A stretch of 64,000 nt of DNA from Thermodesulfovibrionia bacterium. Its GTDB lineage: Bacteria > Nitrospirota > Thermodesulfovibrionia > JACRGW01. The stretch lies in contig CAKKRL010000162.1 in NCBI GenBank assembly GCA_919902655.1, forward strand, positions 251 through 64,250. Reading direction: 5' to 3'. Below, piece by piece: positions 1,770 through 42,565 of this stretch. How positions within the stretch are numbered: position 1 is the first letter of the stretch; each line of letters starts with the position of its first letter. The position numbers and the translations under genes were made by a program. The notes under the pieces were generated by a model. It worked only from the letters and a program-made list of their open reading frames with translations. It was not told the origin of the DNA and searched no databases.

Positions 1770-2912
1770 TCAGAGAGATCTGAGCCTTCCGTCTTTAAGG
1801 ATTACCGCTTCCTTCTTATTATGATATACCAATCTAAGGGTAGGACGGAAGAATATGAAGTCCTGATGGAATGGAGTCCTTATCTTTCCTCCGAAGGAAC
1901 TGTTATCACCGAGGGCAATATGTATCGTACCCAGAATCTTTTCTGACTCAAGTATATTATCCGGCCTTGTTGCCTTATCGTTCGTGCCTATTCCGAGTTC
2001 CGCTATATTCCTGAAATTATCGTTCTCTGAAAGTTTCTTTTCAAGCACAGACCTATAGCTATCCCTTCCTTCTACCTCTACTACTTTCCCCTTTCTGACC
2101 GTAAGGTCTACTGTATATTTAAGCCTATGCGTCGGCGCCCATTCAACAATAAGCTTTCCCTCTGATGTCCCTTCAAGAGGTGCGAGATATACTTCTCCTG
2201 CAGGGAGATTGCCAAAAGAACCAGGTTTTCTAAGTATTCCTGTGTCAGAACCTGTCTTTCTCCCTTCTTTACTAAAAGAGAGTTCTGTCCCATTGGGTGT
2301 AGAGACTTCTATCCGCAAGGCCTTATTCACCTTCCCCGCTAAATCCTTCGTTCTCCTCTCAAGATCCCTCCAGTCCACAGTCATAGCCCCGAATAACATA
2401 TCGGGATCAAAGAGTGGCATACTCGCATAACGGGCCCCTGCAGCTCTTGTAATAAAATCCCTGAACCTTGTATGGCTTGTGGAATAGTTAGAAAGACCGA
2501 CCACAACATCTATGGTATTCTTCCTGTATTTAGAAATAATATCCTCTGCCTTTCTGATCTGCTCATCCCCTGCCTTCTTATCAATAAGCGCCTTCATTAC
2601 CTTCAGTTCTTTCAGTGCTTTTACTGTTTTTTCCCCAAAGGCCCTCCTCCAGACCTTTTCAGGAGGTTCAGCACCATGGGACATTAGGGCCTTATACTCT
2701 GTATATACAACCTCCTTACATAAACCCTTTCCTACCTCCGCCACAAGCCTTGCAAGGTCCTTAAGCCTCCCCCTCCTATTTCTGTCTTCAGGGGTTATTC
2801 TCTCCTCCGGCATTATCTCATCTGTGAAGACGAGCACCCTCTCCTCTTTCCTGACTCCGAGATTTATCCTGAACAGATCCTTTATTGCCTCAATGAACCT
2901 GTCATTCGACAT
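1770..2912 (-). CDS. Aminopeptidase, probably M29 (thermophilic metalloprotease / AmpS-like) family
   Basis: 380 aa cytoplasmic protein. Overall resemblance to aminopeptidase T-like proteins (…ELGIGTN…IHIALGDN…), judged from memory of the family. Confidence 0.45.
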   Translation of the reverse strand: MSNDRFIEAIKDLFRINLGVRKEERVLVFTDEIMPEERITPEDRNRRGRLKDLARLVAEVGKGLCKEVVYTEYKALMSHGAEPPEKVWRRAFGEKTVKALKELKVMKALIDKKAGDEQIRKAEDIISKYRKNTIDVVVGLSNYSTSHTRFRDFITRAAGARYASMPLFDPDMLFGAMTVDWRDLERRTKDLAGKVNKALRIEVSTPNGTELSFSKEGRKTGSDTGILRKPGSFGNLPAGEVYLAPLEGTSEGKLIVEWAPTHRLKYTVDLTVRKGKVVEVEGRDSYRSVLEKKLSENDNFRNIAELGIGTNDKATRPDNILESEKILGTIHIALGDNSSFGGKIRTPFHQDFIFFRPTLRLVYHNKKEAVILKDGRLRSL

Positions 2913-4032
2913 TTTTTATTCTTTTATTCCCTTCTCTTTCAAGTATCGTTACAACACCAAGGATAACAACCGCCTGAAGAATCAGTATAATAGCCATCTC
3001 GGTCGTCACCCTTCTTATCAGAAGGGCCGTAAGCCCGAGTGAAATTGCAAGGAAATAGATAAGTATCACTGCCTTCTTTTTTCCTTGAAGAAGTGCGTCC
3101 ATCCTGTGATGCAGATGGTCTTTACCTACATAGTCTATCCACTCCTTAACGCTCTTAACCTTCCCCTCTATGACCCGTGCAACTGTTATATATATGGTAT
3201 CGTATATGAAAATAGAAAAGATAAGGAGGGGTGCTGTTAAAGATACAAGGGGGTTATTCTCTGACCATTCGCCTTTTATAGCCAGTGCAGAAAGGATAAA
3301 ACCAAGGAATGTGCTTCCTGATTCTCCGAGAAAAATGGTTGCAGGGCCTTTAATCCTGAAATTATAGGGGAGAAACCCTAAGGAAGCACCCAGTATTGCA
3401 ATCGCCATCCATCCGAGGATAGGCTGAGCTCCCATGAAGGCAATTATTCCTATAAAAAACGCAGTGATGATCGAAAGCCCTGAAGCAAGGCCGTCCATGC
3501 CATCAAAGAAGTTCATTGAGTTAGTAATCCCCACAACCCAGAGGATTGTGAGGAAGATATTTACTGATGCGCCAAAGACCGATTCGCTTGGGAAGAGCGT
3601 AAGGAGGACCCCGGATTTTATTATAAAGAACGTGATTGCTATCTGGATCAAAAGTCTTATGCTCGCAGGTATCTCCCGTTTGTCATTTATAACTCCGACC
3701 AAAACGAGTATAGCACCGCTTGAAAGAATGGACAAAGATTGATCATCAACGATCTGATTGGACAGAAATGCACTAACCGTACCCAAATAAACTGCCAGTC
3801 CTCCGAGTAGCGGTGTTGGTTCTGCATGTACCTTCCTTTCTGCAGGGATATCGATCATTTTGAATCTTATGGCAATAAGCCTTACAGCCGGAACAATAAA
3901 GAATGAAAGTGAGGCAGAGAAAAGAAGAACATATAACCAGCGGAATCCTCCTCTGAAGAAGAAGTCTTTCCCGTAGGGAGTAAAGAGGATAACCGAAGCT
4001 ATCCCTGATAGAACAAATAGTGCCTTCACCAA
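2902..4032 (-). CDS. Polyprenyl-phosphate N-acetylhexosamine-1-phosphate transferase (WecA/MraY family, GT4 superfamily), the initiating transferase
   Basis: Multi-TM protein with the NSMNFFDGMDGLA motif diagnostic of the MraY/WecA family. Last gene of the long minus-strand polysaccharide operon. Confidence 0.85.
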   Translation of the reverse strand: MVKALFVLSGIASVILFTPYGKDFFFRGGFRWLYVLLFSASLSFFIVPAVRLIAIRFKMIDIPAERKVHAEPTPLLGGLAVYLGTVSAFLSNQIVDDQSLSILSSGAILVLVGVINDKREIPASIRLLIQIAITFFIIKSGVLLTLFPSESVFGASVNIFLTILWVVGITNSMNFFDGMDGLASGLSIITAFFIGIIAFMGAQPILGWMAIAILGASLGFLPYNFRIKGPATIFLGESGSTFLGFILSALAIKGEWSENNPLVSLTAPLLIFSIFIYDTIYITVARVIEGKVKSVKEWIDYVGKDHLHHRMDALLQGKKKAVILIYFLAISLGLTALLIRRVTTEMAIILILQAVVILGVVTILEREGNKRIKNVE

Positions 4033-5078
4033 GTAATCAGTTCCTTATACCTTTTAAGGGAATCAGAAATCTTACGGATTTCTTTACCGGTAAGACCCGG
4101 ATAGATCGGAATTGATATCGATCTTTTCCATGAAAGTTGTGTGTTGTGATATCCCTTTTCACCTGTATAGTAGTGGAGAGGTTTGAATACAGGCCTCCTG
4201 CAGGAGATTCCATCCTTTTCCATAAGCCTTATAAATCGTTCTAAATGACTTGTTTCTAATATATATCTGTAATAGATGCCCTTCCCTCGTCTCTCGTCCC
4301 TCTTTAAGGTGGTATCATAGATCCTTGCGATCTCTTCCCTCCTTTTAATAAAAGAAGGCAATCTCTTAAGCTGGCTAAGTCCAAGGGCTGCAGCCATGTC
4401 AGTCATCTTGTAGTTATATCGGAGTTTAAAACTCTCCTTCTCATCATACTCTCTTATATCCTTTGCCTTTTTTATAATATCAGACGAATCTGAAATAATC
4501 ATACCACCCTCACCCGTAGTAATTACCTTTGTGGCATAGAAAGAGAGTATGGAGACAAGGCCGTAGCTACCGACCATCCTGCCTTTATATGTAGCCCCAA
4601 GTGCCTGTGCAGAGTCTTCTATGACAGGGATATTGTATTTATCGGAAATATAAAGAAATGCATCTATATCCGCAGGCTGGCCAAAACTATGGACAACTAT
4701 TATAGCCCTTACCCTTGACTTTCTCCTTTTACGAAGATAATCTTCGACTATATAAGGGTCTATATTATAGGTTTCCCGCTCTATGTCAGCAAATCTCGGA
4801 ACTGCTCCTGTGGCCATTACCGAATTAAGGAGTGCAGAGCAGGTATAGCTCGGAATTATTACTTCATCTCCCTCTTTGATACCGAGGCATAGAAGTGACA
4901 GGTGCAGGGCGGAGGTGCCAGAGCTCAGTGCAACAGCGCCTTTAACCCTTATATACGACGCCAGGGTTTTCTCGAACTTTTCGACCTCAGGCCCCTGTGC
5001 TATTTGACCTGTTCTGATAACTCCTGATACAGCTTCTATATCCTTTTTGTCAACGCTTGGCCTTGAATGAGGGATCAT
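4026..5078 (-). CDS. DegT/DnrJ/EryC1/StrS-family PLP-dependent sugar aminotransferase
   Basis: Typical DegT architecture (…ALSSGTSALHLSL…, DSAQALG…, SFYATKVITTGEGGM). Overlaps its neighbours by 4-7 nt. Confidence 0.8.
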   Translation of the reverse strand: MIPHSRPSVDKKDIEAVSGVIRTGQIAQGPEVEKFEKTLASYIRVKGAVALSSGTSALHLSLLCLGIKEGDEVIIPSYTCSALLNSVMATGAVPRFADIERETYNIDPYIVEDYLRKRRKSRVRAIIVVHSFGQPADIDAFLYISDKYNIPVIEDSAQALGATYKGRMVGSYGLVSILSFYATKVITTGEGGMIISDSSDIIKKAKDIREYDEKESFKLRYNYKMTDMAAALGLSQLKRLPSFIKRREEIARIYDTTLKRDERRGKGIYYRYILETSHLERFIRLMEKDGISCRRPVFKPLHYYTGEKGYHNTQLSWKRSISIPIYPGLTGKEIRKISDSLKRYKELITW

Positions 5079-5704
5079 CGCTTTTTTTCTTTTACATTGA
5101 TGAACAATCTCAGGGGGCTAAAGCCCTCGGCGTTCTTCACCCTTCCCTGAATACCCCTGAAATGGGCTGAGGACCGGGCAATGTCTATGATAGAAAGCCC
5201 CTCAATATTTGTCTTCATTACCTGAGAGGAATGTGCCTTCAGGAGCTTGAGCTTCTTTTCCAGTTCTGCGTCAATATTTACGAATACTGTTGGGCTGAAG
5301 TTCTGGGTTGTTGGCCCTTCATAGAACATGACATTCCTCGTGTATCTTGTTGCCGTTATTGTGCAGGTTGATATATGACGGTGGTCCTGGTGAGTATCAT
5401 CGAAGTAATGCACAAAGATAAAGGCAGGTTTGATCTTTTTTACAATATTCTCTATCCTCTGGATAAGCTCCTGATTAATGGGTATTTCCGTATCCCTGTA
5501 ATTTCCCCAGAAGAGCTTATTAACACCTATTATCCTTGCCGATTTCTCCTGCTCTCTTCTCCTCATACCTTCAACTGCTCCGCTCTCTCCCTCTGTAAGG
5601 ACGAGCAGATATATATTATGCCCCTTATCTGCATATTTTATTAATGCCCCCCCACAACCAAATTCTATATCATCCGGATGTGAACCAATTGCAAGAATAT
5701 TCAT
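5075..5704 (-). CDS. PIG-L/LmbE-family N-acetylglucosaminyl deacetylase
   Basis: N-terminal HPDDIEFGCGG motif and the HQDH motif. Confidence 0.8.
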   Translation of the reverse strand: MNILAIGSHPDDIEFGCGGALIKYADKGHNIYLLVLTEGESGAVEGMRRREQEKSARIIGVNKLFWGNYRDTEIPINQELIQRIENIVKKIKPAFIFVHYFDDTHQDHRHISTCTITATRYTRNVMFYEGPTTQNFSPTVFVNIDAELEKKLKLLKAHSSQVMKTNIEGLSIIDIARSSAHFRGIQGRVKNAEGFSPLRLFINVKEKKR

Positions 5705-6390
5705 GAAGAAATCCTCCCTTTTCTTATCATCTCCATACCATTTTCTCCGCAGTTAAAAAGGATATCTATGCAGGATAGGTTTGGTTCAAACCCTTCATAG
5801 AGCTGTTGATATACAGGGTGTTTAAAATCCTGGATAACCACCTCTATCCCTGCCCTCTCGAAGGCATCCATGCCCATATATTTCGGTCCGTCCTTGCCGG
5901 AAAGATAGGTATCAGCCCCTACCGACCCGCAGAGGTCTATCAGCCGGCCATCAGGTTCATCCCTCGTTTCAAATTCTGATGCGATAAAAATCTTTTTCTT
6001 TATTCCAAAGAGGTCTGTAAGCATCTTTATCAGAGTGATATTAATATCTACAAGTCTCTCCCAGTTCTTTCTGTATATATCTTCGAAATAAGGAAAATAT
6101 TTTATGAAATATGGCGTCCTTCTGTAATTTGTCTCTATCGCAGTTAAATGTTTCCTCCTCCAGTCTACTCCGTTATTTATCCTCACCTCATTAATCTTCT
6201 CAGGAAATCTGTAAAGAACAGGGACTGTTAACCACTGCCATCCCTGGGATGTTTTTATCCTGTTACGGTTCTGCCATTCATTCTTTTTATACTGGACATT
6301 GTCAAGAAGTATAAATACATCAGACCTGTCTATCTTATCTATATATCCGATCCATGGCATATACTGGGGCTGATGTATAGAGGCCATCAT
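5701..6390 (-). CDS. WbqC-family protein of unknown function, as found in O-antigen clusters
   Basis: The N-terminus MMASIHQPQYMPWIGY is the hallmark of WbqC-like proteins. Confidence 0.65.
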   Translation of the reverse strand: MMASIHQPQYMPWIGYIDKIDRSDVFILLDNVQYKKNEWQNRNRIKTSQGWQWLTVPVLYRFPEKINEVRINNGVDWRRKHLTAIETNYRRTPYFIKYFPYFEDIYRKNWERLVDINITLIKMLTDLFGIKKKIFIASEFETRDEPDGRLIDLCGSVGADTYLSGKDGPKYMGMDAFERAGIEVVIQDFKHPVYQQLYEGFEPNLSCIDILFNCGENGMEMIRKGRISS

Positions 6391-7955: not shown

Positions 7956-8115
7956 AAATCGTTATCGCAAAAAGGAGCAGTGTATTCGAGATCCTCATGT
8001 ATCCTCCAGGTGTAAGATGAGCAATCGAAAATGGTAGCAGAATAAATGCATCAAGAACCCCTATTCCCAGACTCACTACTGCTAAACCAAAAAATATCCA
8101 GCCCACGATTTTCAT
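7936..8115 (-). CDS. Small (59 aa) two-helix membrane protein, not in the ORF track
   Basis: Reverse complement reads ggaggtgaataagtATG then MKIVGWIFFGLAVVSLGIGVLDAFILLPFSIAHLTPGGYMRISNTLLLFAITIYVLKKM. Good SD. Confidence 0.45.
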   Translation of the reverse strand: MKIVGWIFFGLAVVSLGIGVLDAFILLPFSIAHLTPGGYMRISNTLLLFAITIYVLKKM

Positions 8116-8170
8116 ACTTATTCACCTCCTTTATAATGTTCAAGGATTCGAGGTTTGGAGTATTTATTTT

Positions 8171-9346
8171 TCACCTGGCACCTTGACTACCTGATCCCTC
8201 GAATCCTTTATAGAGAGATTCTAAATTATCTATTGCAATCTGTATATCGAAACCCTCTGACCGTATTCTTCCTTCTTCTCCCATAGCATCAGCCATTTCC
8301 GGGGCTGTAAGAATCTTCATAACGGCAGAAGCCATCTCTTCCGGATTTGATGGAGGGACAAGGATACCTGTTATACCATCTTTAACAACCTCTGGCACCC
8401 CTCCGACCTTTGTTGCGACTACCGGCTTACCCGCAGCCATAGCCTCGAGAAGGACACGTCCCAGACCTTCATTCAAGGAGGATAGAACCAGGATATCCAT
8501 CGAAGGTATTATATCACAAATATCCTTCCTTGTTCCTGTAAAAATCGCCTTAACCCCAAGTTTTTCTGCCATCTCTTCCATCTTCTTTCTCTCAGGGCCA
8601 TCACCGACAATTAAAAACTTCATATTTTTTAGCTCGGGAGACCTGCCTGTTTTATCTTTAAGCAGGAATGCGGCCTTCAGGAATGTTCCGCAATCTTTCA
8701 CTGGTACAAGCCTCCCTATCCATCCTATAACCTTATCTTCGGAAGAGAGGCCGAGGATCTGCCTGACCTCTTCTCTTGTTTTTTCCGACCCCTGAAATTT
8801 CTTAGTATCTATCCCGTAGGGAATGGTAATATATTTCTCCCTTCTTGCAAGTCTTAACCTCTGATAGTCTTCTATCTCAAGGTCTGTTAAGGTTGTAACT
8901 CTATCTGTAATCCCTGCTGTTATCCTTTCAGTCCAGAAGAAGAGTTTAGTCTTAATCCATCCAAAATATCCGTAAAAGATATGTCCATGGGTTGAATGGA
9001 TTATTACTTTCACCCCGTTTAACCATGCCGCCCATCTACCTAATATTCCGGCCTTTGATGTATGTGTGTGAACAACTTCCGGCCTTTCCTCTTTAACAAA
9101 CCTGTAAAGTTTGCAGAAGGAATAGAAGTCAAAGAGTGGACTTATCTCTCTTTTTATTTTCTGAACTACAGTTAAAGGTACGCCTGTCCTTTTAGAATAT
9201 TCCTCAAAGTCTTCCTGCGGTTCCTTTGTGAAACCTGTTATAATTCTCACATCATGGCCTTTTTTTGAAAGCCCCTCTCCTATCTGCATAACCGCCTCTG
9301 CCGAACCTCCCTGGTCAAGGCGGGTTATTATCTGGATAATTTTCAT
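8171..9346 (-). CDS. Glycosyltransferase family 4 (GT-B fold)
   Basis: EGLGRVLLEAMAAGKPVVATKVGGVPEVV, the classic GT4 E-X7-E region. Confidence 0.85.
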   Translation of the reverse strand: MKIIQIITRLDQGGSAEAVMQIGEGLSKKGHDVRIITGFTKEPQEDFEEYSKRTGVPLTVVQKIKREISPLFDFYSFCKLYRFVKEERPEVVHTHTSKAGILGRWAAWLNGVKVIIHSTHGHIFYGYFGWIKTKLFFWTERITAGITDRVTTLTDLEIEDYQRLRLARREKYITIPYGIDTKKFQGSEKTREEVRQILGLSSEDKVIGWIGRLVPVKDCGTFLKAAFLLKDKTGRSPELKNMKFLIVGDGPERKKMEEMAEKLGVKAIFTGTRKDICDIIPSMDILVLSSLNEGLGRVLLEAMAAGKPVVATKVGGVPEVVKDGITGILVPPSNPEEMASAVMKILTAPEMADAMGEEGRIRSEGFDIQIAIDNLESLYKGFEGSGSQGAR

Positions 9347-9364
9347 AGAATGACAGAAATAACT

Positions 9365-9769
9365 CTAACTCAACCAATTTTCAACTTTCAAATCTGGTAT
9401 TCTCACAAAATGTCTTTCATTGGATGTTATCAAAGTCAAATCATTCTTTACTGCTGTTGCTGCAATAAGGAGATCCTCTGGCGATATAACTTGTCCCCTG
9501 CTTGCTAATATTGCTGCTAAATCACCTGCGATAATTGCAATCTCTTCAGTAATAGGAAGGATAACTACTTTATCTAACACTTCTGTCTCAATCCTCTTCC
9601 ATAATATCTTATTGTCTGGCCGTCTCTGGCTACCATACCTGAGTTCCATCACGCATATACAAGATGTAAATTGGACTTCAGCAGAAATACTGGAAAGATG
9701 CTCCATAAGGGGTATATTGGGTTTCTTCTTCATGACCTCACTCAGGATATTTGTATCAAAAAGATACAT
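9365..9769 (-). CDS. vapC: PIN-domain toxin VapC
   Basis: MYLFDTNILSE… N-terminus, conserved acidic residues and the TSNERHF C-terminus. Immediately downstream of the antitoxin with a 1-nt gap. Confidence 0.8.
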   Translation of the reverse strand: MYLFDTNILSEVMKKKPNIPLMEHLSSISAEVQFTSCICVMELRYGSQRRPDNKILWKRIETEVLDKVVILPITEEIAIIAGDLAAILASRGQVISPEDLLIAATAVKNDLTLITSNERHFVRIPDLKVENWLS

Positions 9770-10039
9770 TTAACCCTTCCTCTCCTTAACAATCCTGAGT
9801 TTATGCTTATGTCGTTCTTTTAAAATCCTATCAATATCCTTGAAGAATGGGTCTCTAATACCAAGCCAACCTTTTATAGAGCCTAATCCCCTTTCAGATG
9901 GAGCAGATAGGACAGCCACTGGTTTCCCCCTTTTAGTTACAACAACCTCAGCATGGCCGTAAGCCACTCTATTTAAAAGTTCTGAGAAATGTTTTTTAGC
10001 ATCAGCTACGCTCACAGCGATCCTTGGCATAAATATCAC
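9770..10039 (-). CDS. Phd/YefM-type antitoxin paired with VapC
   Basis: About 85 aa with …VSVADAKKHFSELLNRVAYGHAEVVVTKRGKPVAVL…, a Phd/YefM signature. The true start is probably the Met at 10030. Confidence 0.75.
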   Translation of the reverse strand: MIFMPRIAVSVADAKKHFSELLNRVAYGHAEVVVTKRGKPVAVLSAPSERGLGSIKGWLGIRDPFFKDIDRILKERHKHKLRIVKERKG

Positions 10040-10094
10040 CCCCTTTAGGGCATTATAGTCATTTTGGGCAATTTAGTCAATATGACTATAACGG

Positions 10095-15294: not shown

Positions 15295-15308
15295 CCGGTA
15301 TCACTACA

Positions 15309-20973: not shown

Positions 20974-21864
20974 CTACAGCGCCCTCTCTGCCTTTATAAC
21001 CACCTGACTCGCCATGGAAGGGAACGTTTCCCCTATAAGACACAGGAACATGAATATCCTTCTGTAAATTGTCTTATTCCTGGAATATAGATTGTTCAGG
21101 AAGTGATTCGATACAAGGTTCAACTCAACTGAAACAGGGCTGACAAACCCCCTCTTCGGTCTTTTCCTTTTGATTACTGCATAAAAGACCCTCGGTATAA
21201 CAGCTATTGATTTTGGTATTCTCACCCTTAATTTAAATCCTATCCCTTTTATCCCTGCCGTTTTAAAACCTGTTTTTCTCAGAAGGGATTTCAGCCTCCT
21301 CGGTGAGAATGTATGGAGGTGTTGATCCTTCAATATCTCACCTATATTATTTTCATAAAATAAGGGCGACGGCGTAGAGATGATCAGTGTACCACCTCTT
21401 TTTAGAACATGGTTGGAAGATGAGAGAAATCTCTCAGGTTCTATAAGGTGTTCTATAATCTCTGACGCTACGACATAATCAAAACACTCTCCCCTGAAAG
21501 GTAATTCCTCTGCATTTCCTACAACAAAATGTCCATTTTTATATGTTTCAGCACACCTCTTTATCCTCTCCAAGGAGATATCGAGAGCAGTCATCGCTTT
21601 TGCATCTTTCAGTAATAACCCGGCAAGTACTCCGTCGCCAGTACCGGCATCAAGAATATCCTTACCCGGAGAAATCATCAATTTTATCTCTCTCATCTGA
21701 CCTTCATACATTACCATAAATCTTGTAGGGTCTTTCACCTCATGCCCATCGGTTCCGTACTGCTCCAAGAGTATTGAGGTTGCTGCTCCATAGCGGCTAC
21801 TGTATTCGTAGAACTCTCTCAAGCGTTTTCTGATATTATCTTCTCCGAAGGATCCTGTGGACAA
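20974..21864 (-). CDS. Class I SAM-dependent methyltransferase
   Basis: ILDAGTGDGVLAGLL motif I. Confidence 0.7.
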   Translation of the reverse strand: MSTGSFGEDNIRKRLREFYEYSSRYGAATSILLEQYGTDGHEVKDPTRFMVMYEGQMREIKLMISPGKDILDAGTGDGVLAGLLLKDAKAMTALDISLERIKRCAETYKNGHFVVGNAEELPFRGECFDYVVASEIIEHLIEPERFLSSSNHVLKRGGTLIISTPSPLFYENNIGEILKDQHLHTFSPRRLKSLLRKTGFKTAGIKGIGFKLRVRIPKSIAVIPRVFYAVIKRKRPKRGFVSPVSVELNLVSNHFLNNLYSRNKTIYRRIFMFLCLIGETFPSMASQVVIKAERAL

Positions 21865-21869
21865 GATAT

Positions 21870-23456
21870 TTACCTCATATCCTTTCTGCGATTTAATTCC
21901 CTGATAATATGCCTGAGTATGGGTATCCTCTCCCGAAGGAGGTTCCTGTCATAGTCATCAAAATATCCTATGCTCAGGATGATCCCTGAATAAACAATAA
22001 GAAATATTATTCCCTTTATGCCGAGGGAGACTATTGTATCAATCCTGTTCTTCAGAATGGTTTCTGTAAAGAACCTTTCAAAAACAAAGATAAGCCCTCC
22101 TGCCAGGAACCCTGCTATTCCGGGTTTTATAAACGGTGACAACACTTCTCTGCCTGATTTTTCAAAAGAGGCCTTAAATATTTTCAGGAAATATATTGAA
22201 CCAATAATCAGAGAGATTGTTGTCCCAAAGACTGCCCCGAGGAAACCGTATCTCAGGATCAGCATCAGGCTGAGAGCCAGATTTAATGCTATTGTAAGGA
22301 GTCCCCTCTTAAGTTCGAGTTCTACCTTCCCTATACCCCAGACCACAGAAGAAGCCATACTGCATATAAAATTCATAAAAAAACCAAAGGATAGAATCCT
22401 GACTACATTTGCTGAAAGCGGATAATCATTTCCTATCCATACAAATATAATATCCCTTGCCTCGAGAGTAATGAAAAGGAAGAGAGGTATTCCTGCAATG
22501 GTAAGATATTTAGACCCCCTTATATAGAGTTCCCATACCCTCTCCCTTCCCTGCCTGACTTCCATCTCTGAAGCTGCCGGTGTTACAGCAGAGGTCATGA
22601 AGGCAGGGAGGGACCTCATCATCTGTGTAAGCCGTGAGCCCAGTTCATAATATGTCACCTGTGCTACTCCGAGAAAATGGGATATCAGCATCTTGTCGTA
22701 ATGGGAGCTCACCATCTGGGAAAGTTGACCGAGCTGGAGGGCAAAGCCGAAGCGGAACAATTTCTTAAGCATTGACCTCTTGATATATGAAAAACCGATT
22801 CCCCAGGAATCTCCAAGAATCTTATAAGCCATGATTCCCCCTGAAGTTAAAAGAACAAGGGATGCAAAGATATAGTTATACATCAGGCCTGCCAATCCAT
22901 AGCCTTTCTCGAGCACGAAGATTGTTCCAATAATAAGGGGCAGAGAAGAGAGGGCCGCAATTTTGAAAGATATGTCCAGCCTCTGTAATCCATAAAGGAC
23001 AGAGTTAAATACATTGAAGAGATTGCTGATTCCAAGACTTATCACACCCAGGATTATGGCAGTGGTAGCCTCCCCCCGCAGTGCAGGACGGAGATTAAAG
23101 AAATTCAAAAGCGGCCCTGTGAAAACAACAATTGCAACAAGGATTAAAGCCCCCATGACCGCATAAAAGAATAGACCCGAGCTTATCATTTCCCTCAGGC
23201 CTTCCCTGTCTCCCTTTGCATAATAAAGGGATGTATGCCTGACAAAGGATGTGCTTAATCCCATATCGAGAAGGCCCATATAACCTGTCAGTATCCATAC
23301 TACAGACCAGATACCAAAATACTCTACACCCAAACGGCTCAGGATATAAGGAGTGAGGAAAAAGCTCACAAGCATCCCCCATATCCTCGCAAGTGCATTG
23401 TAAAAGGTATTTCTGGCTATCCGGCTGATGTATCCCTGTTCAGGATAAGAGTTCAA
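21870..23456 (-). CDS. Wzx-type oligosaccharide flippase (polysaccharide biosynthesis protein, MOP superfamily)
   Basis: 528 aa, about 14 predicted TM helices, and a typical Wzx-family N-terminus. Confidence 0.7.
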   Translation of the reverse strand: MNSYPEQGYISRIARNTFYNALARIWGMLVSFFLTPYILSRLGVEYFGIWSVVWILTGYMGLLDMGLSTSFVRHTSLYYAKGDREGLREMISSGLFFYAVMGALILVAIVVFTGPLLNFFNLRPALRGEATTAIILGVISLGISNLFNVFNSVLYGLQRLDISFKIAALSSLPLIIGTIFVLEKGYGLAGLMYNYIFASLVLLTSGGIMAYKILGDSWGIGFSYIKRSMLKKLFRFGFALQLGQLSQMVSSHYDKMLISHFLGVAQVTYYELGSRLTQMMRSLPAFMTSAVTPAASEMEVRQGRERVWELYIRGSKYLTIAGIPLFLFITLEARDIIFVWIGNDYPLSANVVRILSFGFFMNFICSMASSVVWGIGKVELELKRGLLTIALNLALSLMLILRYGFLGAVFGTTISLIIGSIYFLKIFKASFEKSGREVLSPFIKPGIAGFLAGGLIFVFERFFTETILKNRIDTIVSLGIKGIIFLIVYSGIILSIGYFDDYDRNLLRERIPILRHIIRELNRRKDMR

Positions 23457-23465
23457 GGATAACCC

Positions 23466-24812
23466 CTATACACTAATACTCTGCTTGTATTTATTCAGAC
23501 GATAGGCAGAAAATACGAGACCGACCAAAAGCCAGTAGGGCTCCATGATTCTAACAATGATGAAACTATTTGCACCGATAGAATGCACTAAAATACCTGC
23601 TGTCCCTGCTATCAGACCGAGAGATAATCCTCTGAGGTAAGGGTCAGAAGAGGCGCTGAAGGAAAGCCATAAATTTTTTAGAATTGTATAGACTAACCAT
23701 AAAAAAACAGCCAGACCAACAAGACCCACCTCTACCAGAATCCTGAAATACTGGCCATCAATAAATCCCTTTCCTGTAACACCATATCCCAGGACAGGTT
23801 TTTTCTTCCATGCCTTTATCGCATCCTTAAAACCTGTAATCCTCTCAGAGGCCGAGGGATCGAAGGTCAGTCTTCCAATTCTGACAGTCCTTTCAAAGCC
23901 CGGAGACTCCTGAAAGGTTGAAGAATATCGTTCCGATACAACCGCCGGAGAAAGTACAACTAACAGTAGTAAGGCTATTATACCGCCGAATAGAAGGTCC
24001 CTCTTTCTTTCGCTCAGGACGAAGAGAATTCCATACATTGGTATCAATCCAAGCCATGAGGAACGGGATAATGAATAAAGAAGCGATACAGATTGAAGGA
24101 GTAACAGACCAACCAGTAGAAGCCTCTTCAATCCCTCTTTCAGGGTCAAGGCAAGGCCCAGGGTTATAGAAATCATTAAGACCAGATAACCCCCAAGGGT
24201 ATTCGGTTCTCCGCCATACCTCCCTTCAAAAGGGGCTGTCACCCTCTCTCCTGAGGGTATCTGGTAAATTGCATAAACTGATATCAGGAAAGATGTAATG
24301 AGTATAGCTGTGCCGAGCCTCTTTATCTCTTCTTCATCCTTTACATAATTAGCCACAATGAAGAAGATCATGAAATATTCTATGTATTTTAAGATGAAGA
24401 GTGAGCCGGATAATATACTGACCCTTCCCGAGATATAACCCAGACCCGTAGCAAAAATGGATAGAAATATGTAAACGATGATCGGTTTATTATAGGGCGT
24501 TTTGGAAAACAGCTGTACATCCTTATACACAGCGATTCTTGCAAACCAGCCAAGTATCAACAGCGGAAGGAGAAAATCCTCAAGCCTGAGACTAATTTCC
24601 CTTGCAGGTGTCGAGGCTACAATAATCTCTGGAGAGAGAAGCATGGAGAATATCAGGAAATAGAGTGTAATCTCGGTAGACATAAAGGAGACGATAAAGA
24701 TTATTATCCCCGCTAATAAAGCAAGTGTTGTTTTGAATGGGAAAAGGCCTGTACCGAGAATCAGGAGAAGAAGTACAAAGAGGATAAGAATAAACCTGGG
24801 GATATTACCCAC
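23466..24812 (-). CDS. O-antigen ligase / Wzy-like polymerase family membrane protein
   Basis: Polytopic membrane protein with a large periplasmic loop. Sits between wzx and wzc. Confidence 0.55.
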   Translation of the reverse strand: MGNIPRFILILFVLLLLILGTGLFPFKTTLALLAGIIIFIVSFMSTEITLYFLIFSMLLSPEIIVASTPAREISLRLEDFLLPLLILGWFARIAVYKDVQLFSKTPYNKPIIVYIFLSIFATGLGYISGRVSILSGSLFILKYIEYFMIFFIVANYVKDEEEIKRLGTAILITSFLISVYAIYQIPSGERVTAPFEGRYGGEPNTLGGYLVLMISITLGLALTLKEGLKRLLLVGLLLLQSVSLLYSLSRSSWLGLIPMYGILFVLSERKRDLLFGGIIALLLLVVLSPAVVSERYSSTFQESPGFERTVRIGRLTFDPSASERITGFKDAIKAWKKKPVLGYGVTGKGFIDGQYFRILVEVGLVGLAVFLWLVYTILKNLWLSFSASSDPYLRGLSLGLIAGTAGILVHSIGANSFIIVRIMEPYWLLVGLVFSAYRLNKYKQSISV

Positions 24813-24813
24813 A

Positions 24814-27057
24814 TTATTCCTCTTTCATCTGCTTTCTTTTAGGCGGCTTCTCAGAATATCGGTAATAATGATGGTAGTAATCAGGGCTTATCTCTGCCTT
24901 AACACCCGTAAGTACTATGCCGAGAATCTTCGCCTGTGCGTTATCGAGGAGTATCTTTGTCCTTTTAAGTGCAGACCTTGCCATCCTTCCTACCTGATAG
25001 ATGAGGATGGTTCCCTCTATCATAGGCGCCAGGATCAGGGTGTCGGTAAGGGGGAGAACCGGTGGCGCATCAACGATAACCACATCATAACTACTCTTCA
25101 CCGTTTCTATAAGCCCCTTCATTTTCACCGATGCAAGAATCTCAGAGGGATTGAAAGGGATGCTTCCTGATGTAATGATATTAAGATTGTCAAGTCCGGG
25201 AGCTGTAAGGAACTCTTCCAGCCCAAAGCCTCCGAGGACAATATCGGAGAATGTCCTCGTTGCCTCCTCAAGGGTAGTGTTCTGCACGATTATCTCAGAA
25301 AGCCCCGGTTCTTTTTTCAGTCCGAATATCTGGTGAATTGCAGGTCTTCTCATATCTGCCTCGATAATAAGTACCTTTTTGCCCATCTGTCCGAAGGCAA
25401 CAGCAAGGTTGATAACCGTCGAGGTCTTTCTTTCAGATAGGGAGGCACTTGTGATAAGAATAGTTTTAAGTTCCTTATCCGGGCTTGCAAATTGAATATT
25501 CGTCCTGAGCGACCTGTAGCTCTCTGCGAGTACGGACTTAGGTGAAAAATGTGTAATGAACCGATAATAGAAATCAAGGCTAACCTTATCCGCTATCGGC
25601 TCGTATGCCTTTTCTATCTCCTTCTTTGCCTCCCTCTCGGAAACATCGGGGATGATCCCGAGTACAGGAAGGCCAAGGAATGACTCAACATCCTCGATCG
25701 TCCCTATTGATGTATCAAACGCCTCTGTAACAAACGCAAGGATAAGACCGAAAATAAGACCGAAGAGTATCCCTATGAGTACATTAGTACCAATATCAAC
25801 TCTGTTTATGGGTTCTTTAGGAAGGGTGGCAGGCTTTATAACAGTTACTTCCTGTATCTGTTCTGCCCCTTTAATCAATACCTCCTGGTATTTGTTCTTC
25901 AGGAGATTGAAAAGGTCGCTATTAATTTTGGTCTCCCTTTCCAGTCTTGAAAGCCTTACCGCAACATCAGGAAATTCTTTAAGCTGAGACTCCAGGATTC
26001 CCAACCTCTCTCTGTAACTTCTGAGCCTTTTAGAGAGTTCCTTACCCATCTCTGTCTTGAGATTCGATATCTTTGCATCCAGCTCCTTCACGAGCGGATG
26101 GTCTTTTGTATAATTTATGAGAAGCGACTTCCTGGCTAACTCCTGCTCTATAAACTGGGTATAGAGTTTATGCATGGGAGAAGCCGGGTCTTCAGAAACA
26201 ATCATCTTCTCCGAATCAAGTATCGTCTTTCCCTTCAGGCTGTCCACCTGTTGCTGGGTCTCCTCCAGCGCCATCTTAACCTTCACATACTCGTCCATGG
26301 TATTTGCTAACGGAGACTGAATAAAACTGCTTGTCTCTGTTGGCACAGGCAGAATCCCTTCTTTTTTCCTGAAGTCCTTAAGTGCCTCTTCAGAGACTTT
26401 AAGTCTTTCCTCTATTATCTTAAGCTGGTTTTCGATAAACCTCTTTGCCTCTATAACCTGGCGGTTTCTGCTTCTAATATTATCGTCTCTGTAAACATTA
26501 GCTACGGTATTTGCCAGAAGCTGTGCCTTTTTCGGGTCCTTATCCTTCGCAGAGATCTCGATAAGGCTTGTATTTCCGATCTGCTTTGTTATTATCCTCG
26601 ATTGAATATCTGATACAATCTTAAGGTATTCTTCAGATTTCTTTGCATACTCATCACTCTTTTCTTTAATTATTGCCTCTAAATCCTTAGCTATATCCCC
26701 TCCTGCTTCCATTAATTTCTGGTAATCCTCAAAGGGGATATCCTCTCCCACATCCTTGGGAATCATCCCCATCTCTTTTGCCACACCCTCTATTACTGGA
26801 TAACTTCGTATCACCTCTGCCTGGGTAGCTATGCTGTCACCAGGGCTCCAGCTTATAACCTCCATAAACAGGCCTGTTACCGTGCTTGCCCTTTCAAATT
26901 TAACCGTCGCAGTAGCCATATAGTTCAGTACAGGTCTCCGTATTTCGGTAACGACAAACGACCCGAGTCCAAGGGCTAATACTATAAACAGGATAATACC
27001 CCTTCTCTTCCTTATTATCCTCCAGTAATCCCTTAGATTTAACTCGTACTGTGGCAT
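24814..27057 (-). CDS. Wzc-like polysaccharide co-polymerase fused to a BY-family tyrosine kinase
   Basis: N-terminal TM plus coiled-coil chain-length-determinant region. Walker A (ITSASLSERKTSTVINLAVAFGQMGKKVLIIEADMRRP). Tyr-rich C-terminal tail (DYYHHYYRY). Confidence 0.8.
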   Translation of the reverse strand: MPQYELNLRDYWRIIRKRRGIILFIVLALGLGSFVVTEIRRPVLNYMATATVKFERASTVTGLFMEVISWSPGDSIATQAEVIRSYPVIEGVAKEMGMIPKDVGEDIPFEDYQKLMEAGGDIAKDLEAIIKEKSDEYAKKSEEYLKIVSDIQSRIITKQIGNTSLIEISAKDKDPKKAQLLANTVANVYRDDNIRSRNRQVIEAKRFIENQLKIIEERLKVSEEALKDFRKKEGILPVPTETSSFIQSPLANTMDEYVKVKMALEETQQQVDSLKGKTILDSEKMIVSEDPASPMHKLYTQFIEQELARKSLLINYTKDHPLVKELDAKISNLKTEMGKELSKRLRSYRERLGILESQLKEFPDVAVRLSRLERETKINSDLFNLLKNKYQEVLIKGAEQIQEVTVIKPATLPKEPINRVDIGTNVLIGILFGLIFGLILAFVTEAFDTSIGTIEDVESFLGLPVLGIIPDVSEREAKKEIEKAYEPIADKVSLDFYYRFITHFSPKSVLAESYRSLRTNIQFASPDKELKTILITSASLSERKTSTVINLAVAFGQMGKKVLIIEADMRRPAIHQIFGLKKEPGLSEIIVQNTTLEEATRTFSDIVLGGFGLEEFLTAPGLDNLNIITSGSIPFNPSEILASVKMKGLIETVKSSYDVVIVDAPPVLPLTDTLILAPMIEGTILIYQVGRMARSALKRTKILLDNAQAKILGIVLTGVKAEISPDYYHHYYRYSEKPPKRKQMKEE

Positions 27058-27058
27058 A

Positions 27059-28180
27059 CTACTCCTTTAAAAGTTTTATTGTCCACGCAGCAGAAATTGG
27101 GATTGTAATGAGTTCGACTGTTGGTCTTATCTTTTCTATGAAAACATTCCAATTCCCAATCAGGCTCCTTGGCACATAAATAATATCATTGTTGGCAAGG
27201 GAAATGTTTTGGGAGATATCTCCTTCTTTTATAAGGCTATTGAGATCTGAAACGATAATCTCAGACTTCTTATCGGCAGTCCGGATTACGGCAGTATTTT
27301 GAAGTACTGCATATATGGTATATCCGTCCGCCATTCCGATAGCATCCATTAGTGTGGCACCCGGTTTTCTCGGATATAGCCCCGGTTTCTTTACTTCCCC
27401 GAATATCAGTATTTTATTTTCTCCAACTTCAATTGAGGGAACATAAATCTCGTCCCCTGCATCAAGAATTACATTTTCCTTAAAATCACCTTCTAAAATA
27501 ATCTTAAGCAGATTTATTGACAGTATAGTACCATCTGCCCTTCTCACATGGACCTTATCCATAGAGGCATTTGGTGTAGGCCCGCCCGCCTGGGTGACCA
27601 TTTCGGTAATCGTTATCTTCCCTTTGAGGACATATTCCCCGGGCCCCGATGCCCTTACAGGAACCATATTAATCGCACCCAGCAATGATATCTTTTTACT
27701 CCTGTATTCCTTTATCCTTACCTCTACCCTCGGCACCCTGATATACTTTGACAGTTCCTCCTTAATCTTTTCCTCTGACTGAGCCGCAGTAAGACCAGCA
27801 ATCTTGACATCAATGAAAGGAAGGAGTATAAAACCATTCGGCCTAACCTCCGGGGTATACTTTTCGACTGTTGGCACTAAGAGGATATCCACCTCCAGGA
27901 TATCGCCTATGCCAATCTTATACTGCGGCACTCCATTAATTTCGACAAAGGTATTGTTTTCTGTTACCTTCCATAACTCAGGTTTATCGGGCTTTGCCTC
28001 CTGGCTGTGCGATTCGACAGCGAATCCGATGTTTGTTAAAATAATAAATGACAGAACAGGCAATAAAAAATTCTTGAATCCTAAGTATCCATTCTTTGCC
28101 CTCATAATCTTTCTCCCCGTAGACCTTTTACCGCAGATCGCCCCCGGGTCATTGAACGGCCTCCGGCTATATAATTCCAT
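27059..28180 (-). CDS. Wza-like polysaccharide export protein
   Basis: Signal peptide and repeated SLBB-like segments (…GDEIYVPS…, …NDIIYVPRS…). Confidence 0.65.
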   Translation of the reverse strand: MELYSRRPFNDPGAICGKRSTGRKIMRAKNGYLGFKNFLLPVLSFIILTNIGFAVESHSQEAKPDKPELWKVTENNTFVEINGVPQYKIGIGDILEVDILLVPTVEKYTPEVRPNGFILLPFIDVKIAGLTAAQSEEKIKEELSKYIRVPRVEVRIKEYRSKKISLLGAINMVPVRASGPGEYVLKGKITITEMVTQAGGPTPNASMDKVHVRRADGTILSINLLKIILEGDFKENVILDAGDEIYVPSIEVGENKILIFGEVKKPGLYPRKPGATLMDAIGMADGYTIYAVLQNTAVIRTADKKSEIIVSDLNSLIKEGDISQNISLANNDIIYVPRSLIGNWNVFIEKIRPTVELITIPISAAWTIKLLKE

Positions 28181-29271
28181 AAATACCTTGCCCCTATTTT
28201 AAAAAGTTCTAAAACCCTTTTCAGATAATAGATAAAAGGATACCTTGATCCTGACATCTCATTGATCTTTTCCTGTGCAGGGAAAAGTATCCTTGAGGCA
28301 AAAAGTATTCTCCTGAAAGTCCCCTTTATCGTATAAAAATATAATATATCTCCGTATCCGTCCCTTCTCTGGTTCTTTATTATCCTGTCCATTATCTTCT
28401 TCTCTATCAGCCCTGACCTTTCGGGTCTTATTTCCAACAGTAAATCCTCAGGGATAACCCTTGAGATCTTATTTATATATGATAGTACATAATAGATAAT
28501 CTTCTCAAAACCTGATTCCCTCGCCCTGTGTCCTATCTTCTTCCAGTCGATATTCGGATTTCCTTTTATCACCTCTATTATATCAACAAGCCAGAGCAGA
28601 CGTAAGAAGGAATGTTTCACAAGATGTATTGCGAGGGTAAGCACCGTATCCTCAGGGGAAAGTATGCGCACAGAATTGAACCTCGCCCCAAAGGGAGAAC
28701 CACTATCCCAGAGGGAATTGTTATCTAATTCAGGGGTATGTGGTATGTGGCCCAGTCTTGTAAAACTGTCTATATCTGCATGAATATCAATGATGGTTCT
28801 TCCGTTATTATAAATCCTCGGACATGTTGAAGTAAGGCGGTATCCTATGGCTTCCATTATCCCGTTTACTTTATCATTATCTCTCTCATCACAGATCAGG
28901 AGGTCTATATCCATTACAGGCCTCGCCCCCATGTCTTTATAGACCCTTTCAAGCAAGGCGGAGCCTTTAAGCACTATTATCCTGACCCCCTTCTCTTCAA
29001 GGGACAGAAGTACCCTGCTCAGGTCATTTATCAAAACAATATTGTTTGTGAGGCTTAGGAGATAACTTTCTCTGAGGGACTTCTGGACAGGGGCGGGGAA
29101 TTTCTGAATCTGACCGTTTTCTTTTAGTATTTTAAATAGAATACCGGACAGGCCTTCTTCTCTGGCAAGGTCGGTAAACCTGTCGAGTTCGACCTCTTCA
29201 AGGCTAAAATTAGCCCCATCTTTTTGGTTTAAGATTGAAAGGATAAGCTTATCTTCTTCAGACCAAGCCAA
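28102..29271 (-). CDS. Uncharacterised nucleotidyltransferase family protein (NTP_transf_5-like)
   Basis: RIIVLKGSALLERVYKDMGARPVMDIDLLI matches the conserved core of this family as I recall it. First gene of the polysaccharide string after the surface-protein gene. Confidence 0.45.
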   Translation of the reverse strand: MAWSEEDKLILSILNQKDGANFSLEEVELDRFTDLAREEGLSGILFKILKENGQIQKFPAPVQKSLRESYLLSLTNNIVLINDLSRVLLSLEEKGVRIIVLKGSALLERVYKDMGARPVMDIDLLICDERDNDKVNGIMEAIGYRLTSTCPRIYNNGRTIIDIHADIDSFTRLGHIPHTPELDNNSLWDSGSPFGARFNSVRILSPEDTVLTLAIHLVKHSFLRLLWLVDIIEVIKGNPNIDWKKIGHRARESGFEKIIYYVLSYINKISRVIPEDLLLEIRPERSGLIEKKIMDRIIKNQRRDGYGDILYFYTIKGTFRRILFASRILFPAQEKINEMSGSRYPFIYYLKRVLELFKIGARYLWNYIAGGRSMTRGRSAVKGLRGERL

Positions 29272-40948: not shown

Positions 40949-40950
40949 AA

Positions 40951-41970: not shown

Positions 41971-42000
41971 TTTAATTATCGAAGACCCGACCTATAGGGC

Positions 42001-42521: not shown

Positions 42522-42525
42522 ATTA

Positions 42526-42562: not shown

Positions 42563-42565
42563 TTT

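Follow-up and report, generated by a model that had tools for sequence, protein, structure and literature searches.

A minus-strand polysaccharide locus in a Thermodesulfovibrionia bacterium is built around a conserved, uncharacterised gene cassette

The stretch of DNA analysed here, referred to as the window, comprises 64,000 nucleotides (nt) from a Thermodesulfovibrionia bacterium of the Nitrospirota (assembly GCA_919902655.1, contig CAKKRL010000162.1, positions 251 to 64,250) and carries a polysaccharide locus of about 26 kb. The locus consists of 25 genes, all on the minus strand and co-directional, running from 29271 down to 2902 with no gap larger than 55 nt (Table 1). We found that it is a composite of a lineage-specific module (Module A) and a cassette shared across phyla (Module B), and not one evolutionary unit. 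For the tiling we used open reading frames (ORFs) of at least 100 amino acids (aa) in a consistent set, plus two smaller ORFs that fill apparent gaps: a Phd/YefM antitoxin ORF (9770-10039) and a 59-aa membrane ORF (7936-8115). A sequence-only reading of the same DNA had counted 24 co-directional genes. The common strand stood, but the count is 25 and includes a vapBC toxin-antitoxin pair, whose PIN/VapC gene (9365-9769) is no sugar gene.

Each ORF was typed against Pfam, with its gathering scores, and against NCBIfam, with its curated equivalog cut-offs. The typed ORFs exceeded the Pfam gathering scores with two exceptions, 6387-7955 and the 59-aa ORF, which had no Pfam match at all. The only curated NCBIfam cut-off reached in the locus was TIGR01007, by the kinase domain of Wzc. 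Pfam typing confirmed the five methyltransferases, the radical S-adenosylmethionine (rSAM)/SPASM enzyme, the two glycosyltransferases (GTs) of family GT9, the two DegT aminotransferases, the PIG-L protein and the WecA-like protein of the earlier reading, and the two DegT proteins (each with its catalytic lysine) and PIG-L bear out its statement that amino-sugar enzymes are encoded. The 522-aa product of 6387-7955, left untyped there, was assigned here, tentatively, to the PHP-family phosphoesterases.

Table 1. Genes of the locus, listed in the direction of the minus strand, and the nucleotide-sugar block of the window
Feature	Position	Strand	Basis or remark
NTP_transf_5 (PF14907) uncharacterised nucleotidyltransferase, first gene of the row	28102..29271	-	Pfam 155.9 bits; no NCBIfam match
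Wza-type outer-membrane polysaccharide export protein (OPX)	27059..28180	-	Poly_export and two SLBB
Wzc-type polysaccharide co-polymerase/tyrosine autokinase (PCP-2a/BY-kinase)	24814..27057	-	Wzz, GNVR, AAA_31; TIGR01007 177.8 bits, above cut-off 108
Wzy_C-domain membrane protein	23466..24812	-	PF04932 49.9 bits; about 12 hydrophobic segments
Wzx-type (MOP superfamily) flippase	21870..23456	-	Polysacc_synt 63.2 bits, Polysacc_synt_3, MatE; at least 10 hydrophobic segments
Class I methyltransferase MT5	20974..21864	-	Methyltransf_11 68.6 bits; motif ILDAGTGDG
GT2 glycosyltransferase	20209..20973	-	PF00535 62.2 bits
Class I methyltransferase MT4	19448..20239	-	Methyltransf_23/25/11; motif I variant GCAMG
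Class I methyltransferase MT3, N-terminal Cys-pair segment	18473..19447	-	Methyltransf_23 76.4 bits; motif ILDIGTGAG
Tandem double GT4, 762 aa	16240..18528	-	two stretches, each Glycos_transf_1 and Glyco_transf_4
Class I methyltransferase MT2	15309..16262	-	Methyltransf_11/25/31; motif IIDIGCGVG
GT9b, first cassette gene	14164..15294	-	PF01075 95.1 bits
GT9a	13116..14186	-	PF01075 (Glyco_transf_9) 119.3 bits
MT1, class I methyltransferase, 222 aa, cassette member	12448..13116	-	Methyltransf_11 59.5 bits
DegT2, pyridoxal-phosphate-dependent sugar/inosose aminotransferase	11255..12448	-	PF01041 200.7 bits; catalytic Lys in SFQRGK
Radical SAM enzyme with C-terminal auxiliary-cluster (SPASM/twitch) domain	10095..11258	-	Radical_SAM (PF04055) 79.7 bits, SPASM (PF13186) 58.4 bits
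Phd/YefM antitoxin (vapB position)	9770..10039	-	PF02604 46.7 bits
PIN-domain VapC toxin	9365..9769	-	PF01850 59.3 bits; VapC (tRNA-fMet endonuclease type) 97.5, cut-off 140
GT4a, retaining GT-B glycosyltransferase	8171..9346	-	Glycos_transf_1 143 bits
Hydrophobic ORF, 59 aa	7936..8115	-	AGGAGG ribosome-binding site; no Pfam match
Putative PHP-family phosphoesterase, membrane-anchored, C-terminal beta-sandwich, 522 aa	6387..7955	-	PHP Pfam match below gathering score
WbqC-family protein (PF08889), putative adenylate-forming ligase	5701..6390	-	Pfam
PIG-L/LmbE-family de-N-acetylase	5075..5704	-	PF02585 94 bits
DegT1, PseC/LegC-like nucleotide-sugar aminotransferase	4026..5078	-	PF01041 305 bits; catalytic Lys in SFYATK
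WecA/WbpL-type polyprenyl-phosphate HexNAc-1-phosphate transferase, last cassette gene	2902..4032	-	PF00953 (Glycos_transf_4) 111.4 bits
Sugar-1-P nucleotidyltransferase, RmlC-like, RmlB-like, RmlD, UDP-glucose dehydrogenase, NAD epimerase/dehydratase	37828..43630	-	Pfam

Module A (15309-29271) contains Wza, Wzc, Wzy_C, Wzx, four methyltransferases, the GT2 and the double GT4. Module B (2902-15294) is an 11-gene cassette with the order GT9b-GT9a-MT1-DegT2-rSAM-GT4a-PHP-WbqC-PIG-L-DegT1-WecA. In order to follow this cassette beyond the window, we scanned one genome per species (185,579 species) with a profile of the rSAM family and found a relative encoded in at least 563 species genomes. The best 80 loci were all from metagenome bins and came from Scalindua, Brocadiaceae, Nitrospirota, Thermodesulfobacteriota, Latescibacterota, Neomarinimicrobiota and others. 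Every window protein was compared by tblastn with 84 loci, the window's own contig and one duplicate locus among them, and the same collinear order recurred around the rSAM homologues. This order was found in, among others, Planctomycetota (anammox), Nitrospirota, Thermodesulfobacteriota, Latescibacterota, Zhuqueibacterota, Glassbacteria, Gemmatimonadota, Omnitrophota and Firestonebacteria; the lineages that carry the cassette number at least a dozen and are mostly uncultured.

Where the flank was long enough to judge, the upstream neighbours of the rSAM gene were DegT2 (36/51 loci), MT1 (31/51) and the GT9 pair (17/51), and the downstream neighbours were WbqC (33/45), GT4a (31/45), PHP (27/45), PIG-L and WecA (22/45 each) and DegT1 (12/45). 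Among the 84 loci, Wzx was found beside none, Wzy_C beside 2, Wza beside 3, Wzc beside 11 and each of MT2 to MT5 beside 1 to 4. An unsupervised, all-versus-all clustering of the ORFs in these loci gave the same picture, with only nine cassette families widely shared. Module A is kept only in a near relative (L087, GCA_040960175.1) at 95-98% nt identity. Elsewhere the cassette is combined with other sets of GTs and methyltransferases: in one Nitrospirae locus Wzx accompanies the cassette and Wzy, Wzc and Wza are all absent from the 10 kb around it, another locus ends at unrelated FtsX/MacB genes, and on a 2.9-Mb Scalinduaceae contig a lone six-gene core, MT1-DegT2-rSAM-PHP-GT4a-WbqC, lies between glycolysis genes and topA. 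Because the cassette is conserved across phyla and Module A is rarely beside it, the rSAM and GT9 enzymes do not serve to decorate a repeat unit peculiar to one lineage, and the earlier view of one unit in which they tailor such a repeat had to be given up. No description of the Module B cassette was found in the searchable literature, and it is like known systems only piecewise.

One alternative is that the whole 26 kb is a single Wzy-dependent exopolysaccharide (EPS) or O-antigen operon, with a heavily methylated amino-sugar repeat on which the rSAM and GT9 enzymes act. All the parts that this model requires are present, co-directional and separated by gaps of at most 55 nt. We scanned for terminator-like hairpins against shuffled sequence and found no intergenic terminator that splits the row: the counts (23 versus 16.1 +/- 4.0 and 22 versus 13.6 +/- 3.7) are about equal to those of shuffled sequence, and the single site in contact with an intergenic gap, a weak one on the minus strand (10052-10037), reaches 3 nt into the start of vapB. 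A division of the locus into several operons, which had been named as the outcome that would overturn the earlier reading, therefore did not appear; neither did non-catalytic methyltransferases, as the S-adenosylmethionine (SAM)-binding motif I is present in all five proteins (pairwise identity at most 36%) and all five are intact as ORFs in L087. The model additionally gains from the rml and ugd genes of the window. Against it, the half of the locus with rSAM, GT9, DegT, PIG-L and WecA is distributed differently from the half with Wzx, Wzy, Wza and four methyltransferases, there are genomes in which none of Wzy, Wzc and Wza lies within 10 kb of the cassette, the heavy methylation of a repeat is deduced from gene content only, and two of the genes are a toxin-antitoxin pair. 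We therefore regard a single operon as a rather unlikely description of the locus, albeit the strongest of its competitors.

The centre of the cassette is the rSAM enzyme, a member of a family with a constant length of 387 aa, 42-64% identity and a conserved N-terminal extension. The three cysteines of its CX3CX2C cluster motif (C56, C60 and C63) are invariant in 20 homologues. Only four C-terminal cysteines are conserved (C320, C338, C378 and C381), compared with the seven of the SPASM motif, which suggests that the enzyme carries one auxiliary cluster, twitch-like as in BtrN. When the family profile was compared with the PDB, the best match was BlsE (7e-17), and residues 317-382 matched BtrN (7e-9). 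BlsE is a radical SAM enzyme that acts on a glucuronic-acid nucleoside, and BtrN is a radical SAM aminocyclitol dehydrogenase. The neighbourhood of the rSAM gene is composed entirely of sugar enzymes, and its most constant neighbours are DegT2, MT1 and GT4a. The stop of DegT2 and the start of the rSAM gene share 4 nt, so that the two genes are translationally coupled, and MT1 lies directly upstream of DegT2-rSAM in 31 of the 51 loci. The best PDB matches of DegT2 are the glutamine:scyllo-inositol transaminase, QdtB and BtrR, which are inosose and 3-keto-sugar aminotransferases.

An rSAM enzyme with an auxiliary-cluster domain beside a DegT-family pyridoxal-phosphate enzyme is the arrangement of BtrN and BtrR/S in the butirosin cluster, the translational coupling being a property of the present locus. 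BlsE-BlsH (blasticidin S) and DesII-DesI (desosamine) are further rSAM/DegT partner pairs. The similarity to the BtrN and BlsE systems is low, however (E 1e-17 to 1e-9, with partial coverage), and in contrast to the pairs of antibiotic clusters the cassette rSAM sits in envelope-glycan loci of uncultured anaerobes. Literature searches on rSAM, SPASM and aminotransferase genes in polysaccharide loci, and on BlsE/BlsH, returned nothing useful.

A different role for this enzyme would be that of a protein or peptide maturase, acting for example on the PHP metalloenzyme or on a small peptide, and not on a sugar. Its best NCBIfam matches are indeed cofactor and metalloenzyme maturases, led by a tungsten-cofactor oxidoreductase maturase at 122 bits, in the PDB comparison BlsE is closely followed by the peptide maturases SkfB and CteB, and in Planctomycetota the rSAM gene is a direct neighbour of the PHP gene. 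However, no conserved small ORF adjoins the rSAM gene, its start overlaps DegT2, its constant neighbours are DegT2, MT1 and GT4a, and the top profile matches are BlsE and, for the C-terminal domain, BtrN. A second branch of the family also stands beside Wzc and Wza where there is no PHP gene. We consider a maturase improbable. This second branch, which is mostly from Neomarinimicrobiota, adjoins Wzc/Wza homologues in L040, L043, L044, L046 and L047 as well as in L051, L053, L054, L056 and L058, and these loci are devoid of DegT2, PHP and WbqC. At five other loci (L030, L031, L035, L071 and L078) weak homologues of NTP_transf_5 (21-25% identity) adjoin the same rSAM family, and in L078 the homologue stands at the MT1-DegT2 position.

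Downstream of the rSAM gene, GT4a, PIG-L and WbqC form a trio that would mirror, by analogy, the logic of glycosylation, de-N-acetylation and aminoacylation in bacillithiol and mycothiol synthesis, although these proteins are not members of those pathways. Similar to BshA/B/C and MshA/B/C, the trio comprises a GT4 N-acetylhexosamine (HexNAc) transferase, a PIG-L/LmbE de-N-acetylase and a putative ligase whose fold is like that of class I aminoacyl-tRNA synthetases, in the same logical order. In NCBIfam, GT4a scored 210 bits with stp2, 123 with BshA and 116 with MshA, all below cut-off, and the best match of PIG-L was BshB1 at 107.8 bits versus a cut-off of 182.5. PIG-L lies directly downstream of WbqC in 25 loci. 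The predicted structure of WbqC has BshC as its best match and also matched MshC; the model points to the fold of BshC and the class I aminoacyl-tRNA synthetases, a likeness at the level of the fold only. We take the WbqC family to be named after a gene of the Escherichia coli O121 cluster. The O121 antigen carries an amide-linked N-acetylglycine, a lead that is compatible with WbqC acting in aminoacylation. Searches of the literature on the function of WbqC or on a link between BshC and WbqC found nothing useful.

These matches could also mean that GT4a, PIG-L and WbqC make a soluble thiol or an aminoacyl-glucosamine metabolite, an analogue of bacillithiol or mycothiol, with MT1 as an N-methylase comparable to NmbA. 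BshB1 is the top match of PIG-L, BshA and MshA are among the matches of GT4a, BshC and MshC are the structural matches of WbqC, and the six-gene Scalinduaceae core stands alone between glycolysis genes and topA. On the other side, all of the scores are below cut-off (no Bsh or Msh equivalog cut-off was reached), WbqC lacks the C-terminal half of BshC and shows no detectable sequence similarity to it, and the cassette usually includes the membrane protein WecA, the GT9s and the membrane-anchored PHP protein and sits in polysaccharide loci, a context of membrane and polysaccharide unlike the cytoplasmic synthesis of a metabolite. A soluble product thus appears very improbable, the least probable of the alternatives considered here.

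The PHP protein is anchored to the membrane at its N-terminus; its domain is interrupted by a membrane hairpin of two helices and followed by a C-terminal beta-sandwich that resembles the carbohydrate-binding domain of Wzt. As a single sequence it had no match in the PDB, and for this protein, as for WbqC, it was the predicted structure alone that gave information. It belongs to a discrete family, of which 416 clusters were counted at E<=1e-30 in a set of 1.84 billion representatives and which is annotated as hypothetical in every source. In at least three cases (P0294, P0301 and P0326, 853-875 aa; L005 contig JACRNI010000111.1) it occurs as a fusion in which an ortholog of GT4a forms the N-terminus, followed by a transmembrane segment and the PHP-like protein. 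In P0326, residues 1-389 share 44% identity with GT4a, and residues 408-874 share 45% with the PHP protein. The fusions tie the two activities together and support a topology with the N-terminus inside. The closest known PHP enzymes are TM0559, Bacteroides 3e38, the CehA/McbA metallohydrolases and the CpsB/YwqE capsule phosphatases, from which it differs in its membrane anchor, its inserted hairpin, its Wzt-like beta-sandwich and a predicted periplasmic location, and in the GT4 fusions of some genomes.

The remaining enzymes at the distal end of the cassette also scored below their equivalog cut-offs. DegT1 reached 266 bits with PseC (cut-off 423.5), and the WecA-like protein, which has nine hydrophobic segments, reached 128.6 bits with TIGR02380 (cut-off 326).

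At the proximal end, the GT9 pair resembles WaaC/WaaF/WaaQ in having full-length PF01075 domains and heptosyltransferases II and III as its best NCBIfam matches. With heptosyltransferase II (TIGR02195) GT9a scored 95.5 and GT9b 102.8 bits versus a cut-off of 134.6, and both proteins fall below every NCBIfam heptosyltransferase cut-off (I, II and III). Unlike the genes of WaaC/WaaF/WaaQ loci, these lie beside rSAM, DegT, methyltransferase and WecA genes and not beside genes for 3-deoxy-D-manno-octulosonic acid (Kdo) or lipid A. The sequence-only reading had seen a paradox in heptosyltransferase-like genes that occur with no heptose-synthesis genes in the window. The second half of that statement stood, as no heptose-pathway domain (SIS, PfkB/cytidylyltransferase or HAD) was present among the ORFs scanned across the 64 kb. 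E. coli keeps gmhA, hldE and gmhB apart from its heptosyltransferase genes, and such a separation of heptose genes from their transferases is usual. The paradox is weak for that reason and, with GT9 scores below the heptosyltransferase cut-offs, not a real one; the GT9 pair is an optional part of the cassette.

The same two genes raise the alternative that the cassette makes a lipopolysaccharide (LPS) core in the manner of waa genes, with the GT9s as true heptosyltransferases, PIG-L and WbqC producing an N-aminoacylated hexosamine and Wzy_C serving as the WaaL ligase for the polymer of Module A. The core of Pseudomonas aeruginosa has an alanylated galactosamine, and its gene cluster includes a de-N-acetylase and a carbamoyltransferase. 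Both GT9s match heptosyltransferase II best, it is common for heptose genes to lie apart from their transferases, conservation of the cassette across diderm phyla is what a core would show while O-antigen and EPS genes vary, LptD lies 14 kb from the locus, and Scalindua loci add a carbamoyltransferase and a deacetylase. What speaks against a core is that the cassette has a WecA-type initiator (22/45 loci), whereas a core is built on lipid A; that no Kdo transferase or lipid A gene is among the conserved neighbours; and that the GT9 pair is present in about one third of the loci, with scores below the equivalog cut-offs. One cassette locus (L080) is moreover binned as 'Clostridia'. We judge a core cassette to be unlikely. 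In the Scalindua cassettes (L003, L006, L008, L009, L015 and others) the Polysacc_deac_1 deacetylase and NodU/CmcH-type carbamoyltransferase genes lie between DegT2 and rSAM, and a DUF362 protein is encoded between the two GT9 genes.

Module A, by itself, is an ordinary strain-variable block of the Wzx/Wzy type. It was said to form a Wzy-dependent set, and Wzx, Wzc, Wza and the WecA-like initiator support this; the Wzy assignment is less specific, as the Wzy_C domain is common to polymerases, ligases and oligosaccharyltransferases. A polymerase, a WaaL-type ligase and a PglL-type O-oligosaccharyltransferase are all compatible with the sequence of the Wzy_C protein, and there is no second Wzy candidate in the locus. 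Wzc has a C-terminal tyrosine cluster (YYHHYYRY) and the Walker A' and Walker B motifs; its Walker A is atypical, with SASLSERKT instead of GxxGxGKS/T. Wza scored 123 bits with pepcterm_export and 115 with EpsE, both below cut-off, and has a signal-peptide-like segment after an internal methionine; its real start is probably near 28105. With a WecA-type initiator, Wzx, Wzy_C, a Wzc with a tyrosine cluster, Wza and GT2/GT4 enzymes, the locus is like group 1 capsule and EPS loci (E. coli K30 cps, colanic acid), from which it differs in the atypical Walker A, in the separately conserved cassette half and in having five methyltransferases and an rSAM enzyme. It is also like PEP-CTERM/XrtA-associated EPS loci, as several best NCBIfam matches fall in those families. 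Membership in a PEP-CTERM/exosortase system was nevertheless rejected, as none of the matches to stp2, pepcterm_export, pepcterm_ChnLen and PEP_O_lig_1 reaches its cut-off and the window ORFs that we scanned include no exosortase domain.

The methyltransferases of Module A most likely O- or N-methylate the glycan, and gene content would be consistent with a heavily methylated repeat unit. Compared with L087, MT5 is 95% identical. In the same comparison, the region 18500-20500, which covers MT3, MT4 and the 5' end of GT2, is a divergence island with 70-80% nt identity against 95-98% in the rest; the amino-acid identity there is 66% for MT3 and 80% for MT4. This suggests allelic replacement or diversifying selection on MT3/MT4.

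Such methylation, together with a Wzy_C protein that may act like PglL, is also what would be expected of a short methylated oligosaccharide for O-glycosylation of protein, for instance of an S-layer. The S-layer glycan of Kuenenia consists of five HexNAc and a putative dimethyl-deoxyhexose and is unusually highly methylated (PMC5088730). The cassette is common in anammox Planctomycetota, rml genes and five methyltransferases are present in the window, and the Nitrospirae locus with the cassette and Wzx has no Wzy, Wzc or Wza within 10 kb. However, Wzc and Wza here point to polymer export, no S-layer gene was identified in this window, the loci we compared did not include Kuenenia, and PMC5088730 names no gene cluster for its glycan. 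We give O-glycosylation little likelihood for these genes.

The cassette of the window has been interrupted. The vapB and vapC genes abut (9770/9769) and lie as a pair between the rSAM gene and GT4a, with their own strong promoter-like site (TTGACT-17-TATAAT, 10080..10052), and are common only to the closest relative, L002. The 59-aa ORF and the start of the PHP gene share 20 nt; L002 has this ORF at 79% identity, and more distant loci lack it. From these comparisons, the vapBC pair and the 59-aa ORF are a recent, lineage-specific insertion into the cassette.

A promoter-like site (29365..29337) lies upstream of the first gene of the locus, which is probably transcribed as one or a few units. 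Beyond its lower boundary, an M29/NicX-like gene (1770-2912, minus strand), which also follows WecA in L002, overlaps WecA by 11 nt, so that the co-directional row continues past 2902. Upstream, 141 nt from the locus, a co-directional gene (29412-31343, minus strand) encodes a 643-aa protein with a signal or anchor segment, whose sole family match is a weak one to Big_1 (Ig-like). Divergent from the locus, on the plus strand, 31466-36831 holds a cassette that looks like a SynChlorMet-type system or one for ribosomally synthesised and post-translationally modified peptides (RiPPs). It includes an ABC ATPase and an ABC-2 permease, a 91-aa PqqD-like recognition protein (33049-33324), an rSAM/SPASM gene of the peptide-maturase type (33327-34412; ScmE 92 bits, below cut-off), a P-loop protein (35090-36166) and a signal-peptidase-I-like protein (36277-36831). 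The NTP_transf_5 gene (28102-29271) may be functionally linked to this divergent neighbour.

The window also encodes LptD, rml-like genes, UDP-glucose dehydrogenase and fatty-acid synthesis genes, which indicates that the organism is a diderm with an LPS export machine. Exact matches of the window proteins are to a metagenome-assembled genome of the Nitrospirota (PlsX, for instance, to MEK6693380.1), and one protein also matches an assembly from Hainich groundwater. An anammox origin, which the named rSAM homologues (Scalindua) had suggested, was rejected on the strength of these exact matches. The nucleotide-sugar block lies within 37828-45776 on the minus strand, directly downstream of LptD, and its supply of precursors to the locus is probable.

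Taken together, we favour the view that these closely packed genes are a locus for a cell-envelope glycan of a diderm, assembled from two modules; we hold this to be rather probable, with the steps of Module B drawn from family and fold. In the proposed pathway, the WecA-like enzyme would place HexNAc-1-phosphate on undecaprenyl phosphate, and GT4a would add a further HexNAc. PIG-L would remove the N-acetyl group and expose an amine, which WbqC, with ATP, would re-acylate using an amino acid or another carboxylate. Like BtrN and BlsE, the rSAM enzyme would generate a keto intermediate by oxidising or dehydrating a hydroxyl of the sugar; the coupled DegT2 would transaminate this intermediate, and MT1 would methylate the product. 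DegT1 would provide a second amino sugar, and the two GT9 enzymes would extend the oligosaccharide. After flipping, the PHP phosphoesterase, if periplasmic, would remove or transfer a phosphate on the exported intermediate, and in this lineage Module A would polymerise or ligate the product and export it.

Several observations weigh against this pathway, in addition to the maturase matches of the rSAM enzyme given above. None of the cassette proteins reached an NCBIfam equivalog cut-off, and the proposed steps are assigned from family and fold. Co-occurrence was measured only around rSAM homologues and is conditional on that gene, and the clustering of ORFs around the cassette revealed no further neighbour, a flippase included, that is conserved in more than 10 loci. 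The six-gene Scalinduaceae core has no WecA, PIG-L or GT9, which means that lipid-linked assembly is not guaranteed for the core. The top NCBIfam match of GT4a is the PEP-CTERM-associated GT (stp2) and not BshA. For WbqC, Foldseek gave the same top match, BshC, with weak values (E 0.03, TM 0.44), a comparison with the PDB by sequence found no match, either as a single sequence or as a profile, and the protein has 229 aa versus the 540 aa of BshC, the C-terminal half of which is missing from it. Lastly, the PHP protein scored 23.1 with the Pfam model (gathering score 26.4) and has HxD and not HxH as its first metal motif, and its catalytic domain is probably periplasmic as predicted from hydrophobicity and the positive-inside rule only.

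The part of the locus most worth following is the cross-phylum cassette with its BshC-fold ligase, sugar-type rSAM enzyme and putatively periplasmic PHP protein. We propose, tentatively and with the balance of likelihood against it, that the cassette encodes an undescribed envelope-glycan pathway, widespread in uncultured and mostly anaerobic diderm phyla with anammox bacteria among them, which combines an rSAM, aminotransferase and methyltransferase route to a new amino sugar, N-aminoacylation of a de-acetylated hexosamine on a lipid-linked glycan by a BshC-like ligase, and finishing or transfer of the glycan by a periplasmic PHP enzyme. If this is true, lineage-specific polymers would be built on a shared, conserved glycoconjugate, and that glycoconjugate would be a common envelope feature of Omnitrophota, Latescibacterota, anammox Planctomycetota and groundwater Nitrospirota. 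WbqC (PF08889), the hypothetical PHP-like family and the 387-aa rSAM family would each gain a role, the few radical SAM enzymes with sugar substrates would be joined by one from a polysaccharide pathway, and the ligase fold of BshC and MshC would have a use outside thiol synthesis. The idea can be tested, since anammox enrichments, which can be grown, have the cassette.

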